The notes under the pieces: model-generated
Seen by the model: only the letters and a program-made list of their open reading frames with translations
What the model was told of the DNA's origin: nothing
Databases searched by the model: none
IMG/VR virus record: IMGVR_UViG_3300025828_000014
DNA length: 64,000 nucleotides
From: a virus
Strand: one strand, 5' to 3'
Program-made: the position numbers and the translations under genes
Part shown: positions 11,488 through 26,476 of the stretch, in pieces
Layout of the letters: every line of letters starts with the position of its first letter
Numbering within the stretch: the first letter of the stretch is position 1

Positions 11488-11568
11488 TTTTTTCTCCTTT
11501 TGACGTTCTAGGTCTACGCGGGTGGGTCCGCATAAGTCCTCATCGAGAGGCTCTCCTCTTGACACATG

Positions 11569-11574
11569 TATTTA
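11569..11574 (-). promoter_or_regulatory. Late promoter box TAAATA
   Basis: TAAATA 82 nt upstream of the ATG at 11487. Confidence 0.6.
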
Positions 11575-11596
11575 GCCTTTTTGTAAAAATGGGTTA

Positions 11597-11788
11597 TTAT
11601 GTGTCATGTTCTAATACAACCGCCCAACATCTACCATTTTGCAGTTCGTATGTAAACAAAACTTTATCACCTATTTTAAATTTTTTTTCTGTGTTTTTAA
11701 ATAAAACATCTTGTCTAGATTGTCCAAACTCTTTAGGTCTAATACTTCCTGTGTTGCCAGTAAATTTGTATACTTGTCCTTTAAACAT
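11597..11788 (-). CDS. Small cold-shock-domain (OB-fold)-like protein
   Basis: KGQVYKF..NTGSIRP....DVLF....KIGDKVLF....GRCWAV follows the CspA pattern GxVKWF..GFI.P..DVF..G..V.F..G..A.V; own SD AGGAG and TAAATA at 11806-11811. Confidence 0.55.
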   Translation of the reverse strand: MFKGQVYKFTGNTGSIRPKEFGQSRQDVLFKNTEKKFKIGDKVLFTYELQNGRCWAVVLEHDT

Positions 11789-11818
11789 TGCGATTCTCCT
11801 TGCAGTATTTACTCAATA

Positions 11819-11842
11819 AAATAGGCCCCGTAGGGCCTATTT
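11819..11842 (-). terminator. Intrinsic terminator after the major capsid gene
   Basis: AAAUAGGCCC-UACG-GGGCCUAUUU(UAUU): 10-bp stem, C(UACG)G tetraloop, U-rich tail. Confidence 0.85.
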
Positions 11843-11867
11843 GTTAAGTTTTTAAAGTTTGTATAAC

Positions 11868-16570: not shown

Positions 16571-16580
16571 TAATTGACTC

Positions 16581-16832
16581 CTATGCTACTGCTTCTTCAC
16601 CACCTTGAGCAGCTAGTCCATACATTGCCCTAACATATAGTAAGTCTTTTTCAGCTTCTCTTTTATGAGCATCGTCTGCCCTACGTGCCCTGTTTATATC
16701 TTTTAGCGTGAGTCTAGTTTTTCTTGTATCATCCATTGAAATTGGTGTTTCATCGTCGTCGGCGATGTATCTCTGGTCCTCTTTGGGTTCCATAGTCTGT
16801 TTATCAAAATAATATAACTCACGTAGTATCAT
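16581..16832 (-). CDS. Hypothetical protein of the head module
   Basis: ORF directly downstream of portal; TAAATA at 16838-16843 overlaps the portal stop codon. Confidence 0.7.
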   Translation of the reverse strand: MILRELYYFDKQTMEPKEDQRYIADDDETPISMDDTRKTRLTLKDINRARRADDAHKREAEKDLLYVRAMYGLAAQGGEEAVA

Positions 16833-16840
16833 AGTATTAT

Positions 16841-23163: not shown

Positions 23164-23649
23164 TTATTTATCTTCTGCATATATTTGTTTTAACTTTTCA
23201 TCAGCAAACACTTCTTTGCCACCTCTATCCTTGAAACCTAATCCAAGAATAATTTTATCACGTATTTCACAGGTGCTGCTCCAACTCAATGTGTTTGCTG
23301 CTTGAATAACTTTACCTGTTATCACAGCATTACCTAAAGTTGACTCTAACAGCAAAACAATTCGTGGCAATCTACTAGTGTCACTAGTAACTCTACCAAC
23401 TGGCAATGTCCAACTTTCTTTGTATATATTTTTTATCTCTTTTTTACGAGTGATAGTTTCATATTCATATCCTTTAAGCATATCAAGGAGTATGTTTAAA
23501 TCTTTTTCATCAATATGAAACACGCCATCTTCTTCATCACTTGCCCAATTGCGTTCACACTTACCACACTGTCCACTATTAGGTGTTCTCCAACACATTT
23601 GTGGAGTATTTGCTTTTTTTACAATATTTCTTACTAATTCTGTTGCCAT
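23164..23649 (-). CDS. Hypothetical protein (start revised to MATEL)
   Basis: TAAATA at 23654-23659 just upstream of the ATG at 23649; contains a C..CGKC cluster. Confidence 0.6.
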   Translation of the reverse strand: MATELVRNIVKKANTPQMCWRTPNSGQCGKCERNWASDEEDGVFHIDEKDLNILLDMLKGYEYETITRKKEIKNIYKESWTLPVGRVTSDTSRLPRIVLLLESTLGNAVITGKVIQAANTLSWSSTCEIRDKIILGLGFKDRGGKEVFADEKLKQIYAEDK

Positions 23650-23739
23650 ATTATATTTACTACTATTAAGATGAACTACGTTCATCTGTGTTTTCGTTGT
23701 CACTCAACACATATTTGTTTATCTTAAGTGCGAAGCACT

Positions 23740-24020
23740 GTAGTTTCATACAGATTAATTGGTCAGACGGAACCTACTAGCGGTTCCATCTTCTCAAAGC
23801 TTCATACGAGTAGCATGGCCGAGATCGGAAGTAGGTATTTGACTATGCTACTGGGCTCTGACCTTTCCCAACCTACGTCGACATCACGCAAAATGCGCTA
23901 TCCCCCGCTTCGTTCCTAGTGCTAAGGGGTTTTCGTAGCATACAGCCTGTTGGACTTCACCAGTATCTGATCACGTGGTTACGTGAAGCTCAAGGTGGAT
24001 CGAACAATTCCGATCAAACA
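23740..24020 (-). ncRNA. Putative large structured (pseudoknotted) non-coding RNA downstream of the GIY-YIG gene
   Basis: About 50% GC by my count over 23761-24000, unlike the AT-rich spacers elsewhere; many 6-9 bp complementary segments, with G-U pairs favouring the minus strand. Family not recognised. Confidence 0.6.
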
Positions 24021-24448
24021 GTGTCCTGATGTGCCTTTAAATTTTCTCTAAGTATTTTTGAACCACCAACTCGAACGTTTATAATACCATTGTAGTATTC
24101 ATCTGTTTCTAAAACTCTACGTTCAAATTGTTCTCGTGCCTCTAAGTATGACATTTCGCCTCTAGATTTACAAAAGTAAAGTATTTCTCTAGTGAATTTG
24201 TTTTCGCCTAATTTTTCTACGTCTGCTATTAGTTTATCTGATGATCCCCAATAGTCTCGCCAATCTGATTCTTTGTGACCTCTGCGTTTGTTCTTTTTGC
24301 CTTTTAGAGGTGGCTTGGTTGTTTTAAATTTAGCTAGTTTTTTGCCTACATATTTGCGATTGTCTGTTAAATTGGTTATAAGGTAAACGAATCCTTCATA
24401 TTCATCCGATATTTCGGTTATTTCTTTACCTTTGTAAGTCCAATTCAT
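24014..24448 (-). CDS. Small GIY-YIG endonuclease
   Basis: GFVYLITNLTDNRKYVGKK, YWGSS, FTREIL, conserved E in YLEAREQ, YYNG; catalytic domain only. Confidence 0.88.
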   Translation of the reverse strand: MNWTYKGKEITEISDEYEGFVYLITNLTDNRKYVGKKLAKFKTTKPPLKGKKNKRRGHKESDWRDYWGSSDKLIADVEKLGENKFTREILYFCKSRGEMSYLEAREQFERRVLETDEYYNGIINVRVGGSKILRENLKAHQDTV

Positions 24449-24455
24449 ATAATAG

Positions 24456-24698
24456 TTACTTGTTTGTCTTTGCTTCTCGTGCCTTTTCTGGATTATTTTT
24501 TGCTCTGCCGTCTTTTACATGCCTAATATGTTCTTGTAGTATTTCTTCTCGCCTAACATTGCATAGATTGCGTAGTTCAGATAGCTTTTTACGCACCTTC
24601 CTGCGTTTTAATTCTGCAGGACGATGGTTGAATATTTCGTTTAGTTCAAAATATTCAAGCACAGCAAGTATTATTTTATCGTGTGTATCCGAATCCAT
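24456..24698 (-). CDS. Hypothetical basic helical protein
   Basis: ORF translationally coupled to gp46 (TAATG overlap at 24698). Confidence 0.7.
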   Translation of the reverse strand: MDSDTHDKIILAVLEYFELNEIFNHRPAELKRRKVRKKLSELRNLCNVRREEILQEHIRHVKDGRAKNNPEKAREAKTNK

Positions 24699-26476
24699 TA
24701 ATCTACTATGTCAATATCTGTTGCATAACTTGTAAAGCCGTTTTCTTTAACAACTCTTAATACATTATTCACTCTGCCTACTAGTTCATCCTTGTGACTA
24801 ATCAAGAAAACGTTCTTATCACGCTCTCTAGTCATCTTTTTCAGTATGCCTATGCTGTTTTCTACGCCTGCTGTGTCCATTCCGCTATCAATAAGCTCGT
24901 CAATGAACAACAAGTTAATGCCTTGATATAAACTTTCCCAAACATCGCGGAATGCAAAGGAAAGACCGAGTATTAGCCTGTTACGTTCGCCACGTGACAA
25001 GTTATCAAAGTCTAAATCCTGTCCTAGCTGTGTAATTTCTACGTTTAAATCATTTTGGAACACAACTTGATGCGGTAAGCCTATTTTATCTAAGTAGTAA
25101 GTTAGCCTATTGTTTAGATATGCTAAGTTTTGATCAATAATCTTCTTTCTAATAAACGAATCTTTGTTTGTAAGTAACTTCAACAAGAAGTCTTGATGCT
25201 CTTTTACATTGTTTAGTTCGTTAATAGGTGCCCAATTGATCTCTTGTAATGCTGTATTGGTTAAATCGTTAATTTGTGCCTGGTAAGGATCTTCTTCTTG
25301 CTGTTTACTTAGCAAAGATTTCTTCAAATTATCTACATTGTTTCTATGTTCATATGCTTCTTTTACAGTTTCATAAAATGTTGTAGGACGACCGTTGATA
25401 TCACCAATTTTGTTAAGACCTTTAACAACATCATCTAATTTTCCAGCAACTTCTGTCTGATATGCCATAGAATCTTGCAAATCTTTGCTTTTAGTTGCAA
25501 GAATCTCTGCTTTTTTGTCTTCATGTAGTGCTTGTCCACATGTATAACAAGTAGCATCGTCAAGTTCTGCAATATCCTTGGTTGCGTTATCTACACTTTT
25601 GTTTGCTCTCATTAGAGCACTTTCTAATGTGGCTTTTTCTTTGTTAAGTGCAGCAATTGCAGCGTTTAACTCAGTCCAATTTTGCAATTTTTCATGACTA
25701 TCTAATTCTGCATCAATATCTAGTTGTTCTAGCTCTATAATAGCAGACTCTAAACGTTCAATATCGGTATTATGCTTGGCTTTCCATGCACGTTGCGTTT
25801 GTTTTAGATTGTTAATAGTGTTTTCAATGCCTTCGTTGGCTTTTTGTATAGCTTCTATCTTTAATGTTTCTTCTGTAATAGTATCTTTTGTTAATCTGAT
25901 ACTGTCTTTTAATAAATTTGCCTTTTCTGTAAGTATTGTAATACCAAGTAGCTGTTCAATAATAGCTCTTTGGTCATTTGCTCGCATACTTAGGAAAGGT
26001 TCTGTGTATGTATTAAGTGCAACAATGTGTTTGAACATATCATGACTCATATCCAACAAGTCATTGATAGTTTCTTGTGTTTTTCTACTGTCGCCTTGAC
26101 TGTTATCTTCTAATTCATCAAGTTGTTCACTGTCGTTTACGTAAAACTTTAGTATGTTAGGCGATCTACCACGTTCAATGCGGTATTTGTTACCACCTTT
26201 TTCAAAGTTTAGTGTAACCAACATGCCCTTGCTGTTGGTTTTGTTTATCAAGTTGTTACGCTTGATATTTGTTAGTGCTTGGCCGAACAAGGCGTAAGAT
26301 AATCCATTGATTATTGTAGTTTTGCCTGTTCCGTTTCGTGATCCAGTGTCGTCACCTCCTTGATCTAAATTTTCACCAAGCACTAGAGTGAGTTGATCCT
26401 CTTGGAAATCAACTGCTTGGGTAACATTACCCACACTCATAAAGTTTTTTACTGTAAGATCTTTTAATTTAATCAT
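24698..26476 (-). CDS. gp46: Recombination ATPase gp46 (SbcC/Rad50-like)
   Basis: Walker A NGTGKTT, zinc hook CYTC, signature LSRGE, Walker B LLFIDE, H-loop ISH. Confidence 0.96.
   Translation of the reverse strand: MIKLKDLTVKNFMSVGNVTQAVDFQEDQLTLVLGENLDQGGDDTGSRNGTGKTTIINGLSYALFGQALTNIKRNNLINKTNSKGMLVTLNFEKGGNKYRIERGRSPNILKFYVNDSEQLDELEDNSQGDSRKTQETINDLLDMSHDMFKHIVALNTYTEPFLSMRANDQRAIIEQLLGITILTEKANLLKDSIRLTKDTITEETLKIEAIQKANEGIENTINNLKQTQRAWKAKHNTDIERLESAIIELEQLDIDAELDSHEKLQNWTELNAAIAALNKEKATLESALMRANKSVDNATKDIAELDDATCYTCGQALHEDKKAEILATKSKDLQDSMAYQTEVAGKLDDVVKGLNKIGDINGRPTTFYETVKEAYEHRNNVDNLKKSLLSKQQEEDPYQAQINDLTNTALQEINWAPINELNNVKEHQDFLLKLLTNKDSFIRKKIIDQNLAYLNNRLTYYLDKIGLPHQVVFQNDLNVEITQLGQDLDFDNLSRGERNRLILGLSFAFRDVWESLYQGINLLFIDELIDSGMDTAGVENSIGILKKMTRERDKNVFLISHKDELVGRVNNVLRVVKENGFTSYATDIDIVD

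Follow-up and report, generated by a model that had tools for sequence, protein, structure and literature searches.

The window analyzed here, a stretch of 64,000 nucleotides from IMG/VR virus record IMGVR_UViG_3300025828_000014, is part of the genome of a T4-like jumbo phage. On its minus strand, genes for a gp55-like late sigma factor, gp47, gp46, an 80-aa ORF, and a 144-aa SegE-type GIY-YIG nuclease follow one another in that order and are succeeded by a 310-nt gap. By comparison of the sigma factor, the closest cultured relatives were PA5oct, Atu_ph07, and Rak2-like phages, at 38 to 47% identity. An earlier reading of the same DNA, made from the sequence alone, had described the gap as the longest noncoding tract of the window, GC-rich at about 50%. 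The gap (23704 to 24013) was indeed the longest, the runner-up at 11566 to 11867 being 302 nt, and its GC content was 47.7%, against 36.1% for the window. Every segment quoted in that reading was found where it had been placed. Neither the 302-nt gap nor another of 270 nt at 16571 to 16840 matched Rfam or model R1. At the start of the window, a 557-codon open frame on the minus strand (1 to 1767) continues past position 1 and was missing from the ORF list. The nuclease gene and the RNA assigned to the gap were located as follows.

24014 to 24448, minus strand: SegE-type GIY-YIG nuclease gene (PF19835, phrog_447), neighbor of the RNA
23743 to 24036, minus strand: structured RNA of ~295 nt, from homolog alignments and covariation, both ends placed by conservation

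Most of the 80 loci located through their nuclease gene carried the RNA directly after that gene. Core-pattern scans were made of viral and metagenome contigs, and the homolog numbers listed are to be read as "at least." The alignment comprised 226 distinct homologs, all of the window's own subtype (subtype A). The 5′ edge was an invariant AGGC (24033 to 24036; 27/27 aligned sequences), which stays with the RNA where a small ORF is inserted after the nuclease, and the 3′ edge was set at the end of the second of two sequence boxes (box 2, below). The true 5′ edge, near 24036, had been missed in the earlier reading. The folding energy was ordinary, with z scores of −0.8 for the minus strand and −1.0 for the plus strand.

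An Rfam 15 cmscan of the window gave no match at the gathering threshold and only chance matches at E values up to 10, in agreement with the earlier statement that no known family could be recognized. No Rfam ribozyme or intron family matched the window at gathering or lax thresholds, a tRNA/tmRNA search found none, and blastn of the window's RNA against cultured phages returned only a 29-nt chance match. A literature search, which included two Asteriusvirus genome papers, found no paper describing the RNA. The RNA family is new, being absent from Rfam and from the literature searched, and, judged by its sequence matches, it is common to hundreds of giant phages. On the strength of the alignments, the gap almost certainly encodes a real RNA.

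The fold comprises a 5′ domain, a knotted core, and a hairpin between the two boxes.

23952 to 24026, minus strand: 5′ domain of subtype A, reaching into the final codons of the GIY-YIG gene; stem 24023-26/23952-55, hairpin 23998-24015, stem 23994-97/23958-61, and variable hairpin 23971-86
23827 to 23941, minus strand: knotted core, from covariation; long-range helix 23935-41/23845-51, stem 23925-29/23902-06, helices 23871-76/23831-36 and 23867-70/23852-55, and pseudoknots 23913-16/23827-30 (nearly invariant) and 23877-79/23860-62 (covarying)
23766 to 23790, minus strand: inter-box hairpin, 3′ strand nearly invariant

On 50 diverse homologs, 91.5% of the cells of the curated structure were paired and 16 pairs had two-sided changes; by four of five measures it scored higher than each of 500 shuffles, and it also exceeded every slid control. 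Within the 5′ domain, the first two stems were paired in 27/27 sequences with compensatory changes, and the third appeared compensatory by eye. In the core, the helix GUAGGU/ACCUAC (23871-76/23831-36), already recognized in the sequence-only reading, was paired in 1,351 of 1,356 cells with compensatory changes, and the UGGG/CCCA helix that it was said to enclose (23867-70/23852-55) was likewise supported by the homologs. GUAGCAU (23845-51) had been offered two alternative partners. That at 23935-41 was borne out by five covarying core pairs, four of them paired in 49 to 50 of the 50 sequences, whereas that at 23810-16 was fully paired in only 2 of 223 homologs. A local hairpin at 23782-90/23766-74 was retained, with variation of the wobble type only, and the assignment of the RNA to the minus strand was upheld by many G-U variants among the homologs.

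Other proposed pairings did not survive the comparison. A pseudoknot between the loop at 23857-63 and 23761-67 showed no compensatory changes, was equaled in score by 500/500 shuffles, and was preserved by none of the variants (20 and 13) found at its two informative positions. The loop pairs instead with 23877-79 (677/678 cells, with 11 same-branch co-changes). In 30/30 related loci, 24008-15 folds back on 23998-24004 as a local hairpin, and its long-range pairing with 23823-30 was complete in only 8; the pairing of 23984-91 with 23797-804 was found in 3/15. Conversely, the second pseudoknot (23913-16/23827-30) and the twin boxes had been overlooked. The idea of a novel large structured RNA therefore held in that the RNA is conserved, pseudoknotted, covarying in 226 homologs, and without an Rfam match, but its reading as a switch was unsupported because the alternative pairing partners were not conserved, and no feature suggested a self-cleaving ribozyme. 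MFE folding was also tried as a guide to the structure and was set aside as uninformative; it displays the refuted 23857-63/23761-67 pair as a helix.

The same heptamer stands on either side of the inter-box hairpin.

23801 to 23807, minus strand: box 1, GUAUGAA; identical or wobble-matched as far as 23799
23745 to 23751, minus strand: box 2, also GUAUGAA; matched as far as 23743; putative partner of box 1 through its template DNA strand

The boxes were identical to each other in 221/226 homologs, and one further case was a misalignment. On a 450-branch tree built without the boxes, 38 and 37 box changes were counted, 32 of which fell on the same branch. Twelve different matched words occurred in the tally, at a spacing of 48 to 68 nt, and the same twin-box behavior was found in subtype B. 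Mismatches, scored at positions −5, −4, and +1 to +9, were strongly one-sided. The combinations G/A or U/C (box 1/box 2) accounted for 200 cells with 39 tree origins, and A/G or C/U for 3 cells with 2 origins, these origin counts being approximate because the tree rests on a short RNA. Most mismatches lay at the edge positions −5, +8, and +9, where independence would give 39 cells of the A/G and C/U types and none was observed; within the 7-mer, even wobble was nearly absent. In subtype B, G/A was present at +8 in 27/27.

Such a polarity is expected if box 1 RNA pairs with the box 2 complement, the mismatches then being G-T and U-G wobbles. Therefore, it appeared that box 1 RNA reads the complement of box 2, most simply the template DNA strand. 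No complement of the box was found in the RNA or in the gp55, gp47, gp46, 80-aa ORF, or GIY-YIG genes, and no residue in the products of five neighboring genes tracked the box. The pattern of substitution fits a rule under which the twin boxes must be identical and box 1 would pair with the complement of box 2, not the reverse. It is probable, on these comparisons, that box 1 recognizes, in cis, the complement of its own box 2.

Two identical direct repeats that are required to match are also the hallmark of DRT10 RNA (10.1101/2025.10.16.682844), and the A-B-A′ arrangement could denote a template RNA for repeat synthesis by a reverse transcriptase, in the manner of DRT10 or telomerase. Such a template, however, predicts the opposite wobble polarity, with the 3′ repeat reading a copy of the 5′ repeat. 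The repeats here are 48 to 68 nt apart rather than adjacent, no PF00078 match was found in five complete cultured genomes or five large contigs, and the window contains no tandem copies of the unit. We regard this reading as scarcely plausible.

The nuclease gene was the other obvious candidate for a partner of the RNA. Its product consists of the catalytic domain alone, in which Tyr, Gly, Glu, and Asn are conserved, and the gene lay directly upstream in 113/113 complete loci among those listed by the core pattern and in 48/48 subtype B loci, as might be expected if the RNA were a guide or scaffold of an RNA-guided endonuclease. The linkage was nevertheless broken in nine loci. A RusA-like resolvase occupies the nuclease slot in L263 and L275, and cultured giant phages carry RusA-like or Endo VII genes there (Endo VII in BF17, BF, and GAP32). 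The RNA was found without a nearby nuclease in L260, L267, L281, and L283, and the nuclease without the RNA gap in Melnitz (72% identical), phiN3, and S-SCSM1. Since the slot is replaceable and each component occurs alone, the nuclease is best regarded as a neighbor of the RNA and not its partner. Unlike in OMEGA/HEARO-like RNA-guided nucleases, the pairing is not obligate, and there is no variable spacer and no target in the flanking genes; a guide function is thus very unlikely. Because RusA-like or Endo VII resolvases take the slot in relatives, the pattern of gene replacement suggests that the GIY-YIG protein is probably the junction resolvase of the gp47-gp46 module. A single-sequence fold of the nuclease, with a pLDDT of 37, was of no use, and a PDB search found no sequence relative. 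In many phage records phrog_447 is labeled "NAD synthetase," yet it is a GIY-YIG nuclease, and the slot evidence suggests that the annotation should instead indicate a junction-resolving nuclease.

The surroundings of the RNA varied in other ways. It lies near terminase-like genes in smaller, unrelated-looking phages (L260 and L267), and the nuclease gene is downstream of it in L253 and L274; these odd contexts indicate mobility of the element from one phage lineage to another. In L119 and L199, gp46 and the nuclease gene are separated by inserted radical-SAM-like genes. About 10% of loci have an ORF of 85 to 100 aa immediately before the RNA (L033:3419-3694, L260:3217-3471, and L264:4448-4714), with a K-[IL]-[DN]-W start motif and a PF12843-like or zinc-finger-like end; L260, one of the loci that carry it, is without the nuclease. 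Clade contigs L414, L415, L416, and L417 had been binned into Neomarinimicrobiota, Crocinitomicaceae, and Gammaproteobacteria MAGs, labels that are not host evidence.

Short hairpins of a DNA type were found beyond box 2.

23727 to 23739, plus strand: DNA mini-hairpin with a C-GAA-G loop, immediately past box 2 on the template strand
23669 to 23687, minus strand: DNA mini-hairpin with a C-GTA-G loop, non-template strand, AT-rich surroundings

Over the first 200 nt past box 2, the density of C-GNA-G hairpins (stem ≥5 bp) was 5.4 per kb, compared with 0.021 per kb in 1.49 Mb of flanks, a 250-fold enrichment just downstream of the box. Their spacing was strand specific. On the template strand they lay within 20 nt of box 2 (103 homologs at ≤20 nt), and on the other strand at 60 to 120 nt, a range that held nearly all of the 129 non-template-strand hairpins in homologs. 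Related mini-hairpins have much greater stability in DNA than in RNA form and are found at the G4 and RSF1010 priming sites and at N4 promoters (PMC13037366). Taken together, the matched boxes, the one-sided wobble, and the DNA-type hairpins point to an RNA that would act on its own DNA rather than to a free ribozyme, scaffold, or switch. As for the 179-aa ORF that follows the gap (23164 to 23703), its true start is probably later than the listed GTG at 23703, and a late-promoter-like TAAATA at 23659 precedes the probable later start; with a start after 23659, the second hairpin (23669 to 23687) is noncoding.

No conserved promoter belonging to the RNA itself was found in the window's subtype, and the window's RNA seems, from its position, to be the tail of the gp55-gp47-gp46 operon. 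A promoter hidden in YYNG codons was considered and dropped, as it was not conserved. The region upstream was distinguished by a recurrent tetranucleotide.

24033 to 24870, minus strand: AGGC word cluster, embedded in the upstream genes, strand specific

With 14 AGGC words, positions 24000 to 25000 are the richest kilobase of the window, and the region upstream of homologs contained 10 to 16 per kb, compared with 2 to 4 elsewhere. The enrichment was confined to the RNA-like strand, whichever gene sits there; L263, with a different slot gene, had 17 in 650 nt, and nuclease genes without the RNA had 0 to 2. The Gly codon GGC made up 53 to 59% in the two genes before the RNA, against 23 to 24% in gp46, gp47, and gp55. 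That the words are primase or RNase sites is a guess.

The slot in BF17 and in Serratia phage BF is occupied by a gap of 800 nt, in which the elements follow one another as they do in the window: pseudoknot strand, two nested helices, box, hairpin, box. For the structure of this cultured subtype only stacked pairs were used, the unfiltered pair list being noisy. Matches were obtained in 72 phage records, with 4 to 5 copies per record in E. coli, Salmonella, Erwinia, and Serratia phages and 1 to 3 in Klebsiella phages. The copies are co-oriented and dispersed, lying 52 to 84 kb apart in Serratia phage BF (evenness P about 0.005; 0.07 for BF17). Of 32 copies, 31 stood behind a sigma70-type −10 element and 26 had a downstream hairpin. 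BF17 and BF also encode RNase H, and one G/A box mismatch was seen in Hallingskeid. The window's subtype had one copy per contig in five contigs of 110 to 335 kb, and the GC skew of BF showed no step at the copies. Between subtypes, profile scores were E = 4e-4 for A to B and 0.008 for D to B, with no direct match. From the shared slot, the shared topology, and these weak profile scores via subtype B, we infer that the cultured multicopy subtype is homologous to subtype A, and it is through this inference that the paralog and spacing evidence extends to the window's subtype. Model R1 found no copy in PA5oct, Atu_ph07, Melnitz, phiN3, or S-SCSM1, which is a weak negative because R1 also misses the cultured subtype.

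In PA5oct, four ncRNAs have been reported and an RNA of this family is not among them (PMC7318152); the slot element of that phage is only a candidate. The slot (L429:7190-7345) is a long, poorly coding stretch in which two CACGCC words, ~130 nt apart, stand on either side of a GC hairpin; it may be a further subtype. Another relationship was suggested by Polynucleobacter-1 (RF01718), an aquatic RNA downstream of a gene family possibly homologous to locus 218 of cyanophage P-SSM2 (PMC2864571), which in our literature search was named only in that 2010 paper. In the 3′ flanks of its published alignment, two identical words around a hairpin were recognized by eye (PMC2864571 Additional files). 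Even at lax E values, a cmscan with RF01718 matched neither the window nor any of 19 related loci, and the Rfam model, which has no function assigned, looks like it spans the 5′ part of a distant subtype. In L417 (3424-3750), the nuclease shares 77% identity with that of the window, and behind it comes a different subtype, which resembles the Polynucleobacter-1 flanks and has no Rfam match.

The cultured copies bear on how the boxes are read. In EJP2 and Munch, copies within one genome carry different boxes, each matched inside its own copy, so the identity rule acts per copy. GOLLD, ROOL, and OLE are large, multiply knotted ornate RNAs, orphan in function and partly phage-borne. The present RNA resembles them in all of these respects, with no Rfam match here, and it too could be a free ncRNA, with its boxes serving as binding sites for two molecules of a protein, from phage or host, or for a single trans RNA. 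The large knotted fold would suit this, and boxes were mostly the same across the paralogs of one genome, as a trans reader would also produce. Protein binding, however, gives no reason for G/A and U/C to occur without A/G and C/U, paralogs of one genome can differ while remaining matched within each copy, and no neighboring protein residue tracks the box. To our knowledge, neither twin boxes nor a DNA-hairpin tail has been described for GOLLD, ROOL, or OLE. A free RNA of this kind is considered improbable.

The preferred reading is that the RNA is a cis-acting primer at a ColE1-like, RNA-primed phage replication origin. RNA polymerase would transcribe the element and slow just past box 2, while the folded core would present box 1. 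Box 1 would then pair with the template DNA strand at box 2 over about 9 bp, and the persistent RNA-DNA hybrid so formed would lock the transcript to the gene that encodes it. Cleavage, by RNase H or otherwise, would yield a 3′ end to prime DNA synthesis, and hairpins on the displaced strand would load a helicase or primase. In favor of this reading are the identity of the boxes, their same-branch changes and polarity, and the lack of a complement or tracking protein residue nearby; the C-GNA-G hairpins past box 2, DNA-stable and known from the G4 and RSF1010 priming sites; the 4 to 5 co-oriented copies in cultured phages, with the spacing in BF, the −10 elements, and the RNase H genes of BF17 and BF; and the precedents of ColE1 rG/dC pairing and T4 oriF/oriG R-loops. 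It is weakened by the absence of a conserved promoter and the single copy per contig in the window's subtype, by the indirect link between this subtype and the cultured multicopy one, and by the missing GC-skew step in BF, the uniform boxes of paralogs, and the absence of the RNA among the PA5oct ncRNAs. On balance, initiation of replication is given an even chance of being the purpose of the RNA.

The same cis pairing could serve another purpose, as a device for transcription control or recombination, by forced termination, re-priming of the polymerase, a short, 6S-like product RNA made at box 2 to refold box 1, or an R-loop seeding recombination or packaging. All of the box evidence fits such a device equally well, the element ends a recombination operon and adjoins the resolvase slot, and a hairpin stands right after box 2. 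By itself, however, it does not explain the DNA-type hairpins on the displaced strand 60 to 120 nt downstream or the evenly spread, stand-alone copies with their own promoters, and no U-tract terminator was found on the RNA strand in the window. We consider it unlikely, if a serious contender.

If the primer reading holds, the RNA would work like a ColE1-type primer without being a member of that family. In ColE1 RNA II, an rG stretch pairs with a dC stretch of the template to give a persistent hybrid from which RNase H makes the primer (PMC4412123), and single-strand signals lie downstream (PMC4412123, PMC4555960). Here, too, a folded transcript has an upstream segment that sense-matches a downstream one and so could pair with the template strand, and hairpins follow on the displaced strand, in this case a sequence feature with 250-fold enrichment. 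Unlike in ColE1, the word is a mixed, freely variable 7- to 9-mer that is separated from its twin by 48 to 68 nt and follows a pseudoknotted core; no antisense regulator was seen, and phages have up to 5 copies. As to a dedicated promoter, a candidate is present in 31/32 copies of the cultured subtype and none is conserved in the window's. Phage T4 forms R-loops at several origins, including oriF and oriG; these share no sequence motif, a promoter and an unwinding element suffice, and what governs the formation of R-loops at origins is counted among the open questions (PMC3016281). The present system shares with oriF and oriG a T4-like phage, several dispersed sites, and a transcript followed by an AT-rich tract, and differs in keeping a conserved RNA fold of ~300 to 500 nt.

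A widespread class of jumbo-phage origins, in which a pseudoknotted primer RNA carries a reprogrammable word of 7 to 9 nt and copies are evenly spaced over 350-kb genomes, is a tentative proposal, to which we give slightly less than an even chance. If correct, it would supply sequence-defined origins for hundreds of aquatic phages and also for cultured giant phages of E. coli, Klebsiella, Serratia, and Erwinia. It would be the second natural case of a folded RNA capturing its own template, here with a changeable recognition word, and a structured, sequence-guided viral counterpart of ColE1 RNA II. Even if the origin role fails, the covariation for identity and the one-sided wobble would mark an undescribed mechanism in which an RNA acts on its own complement.
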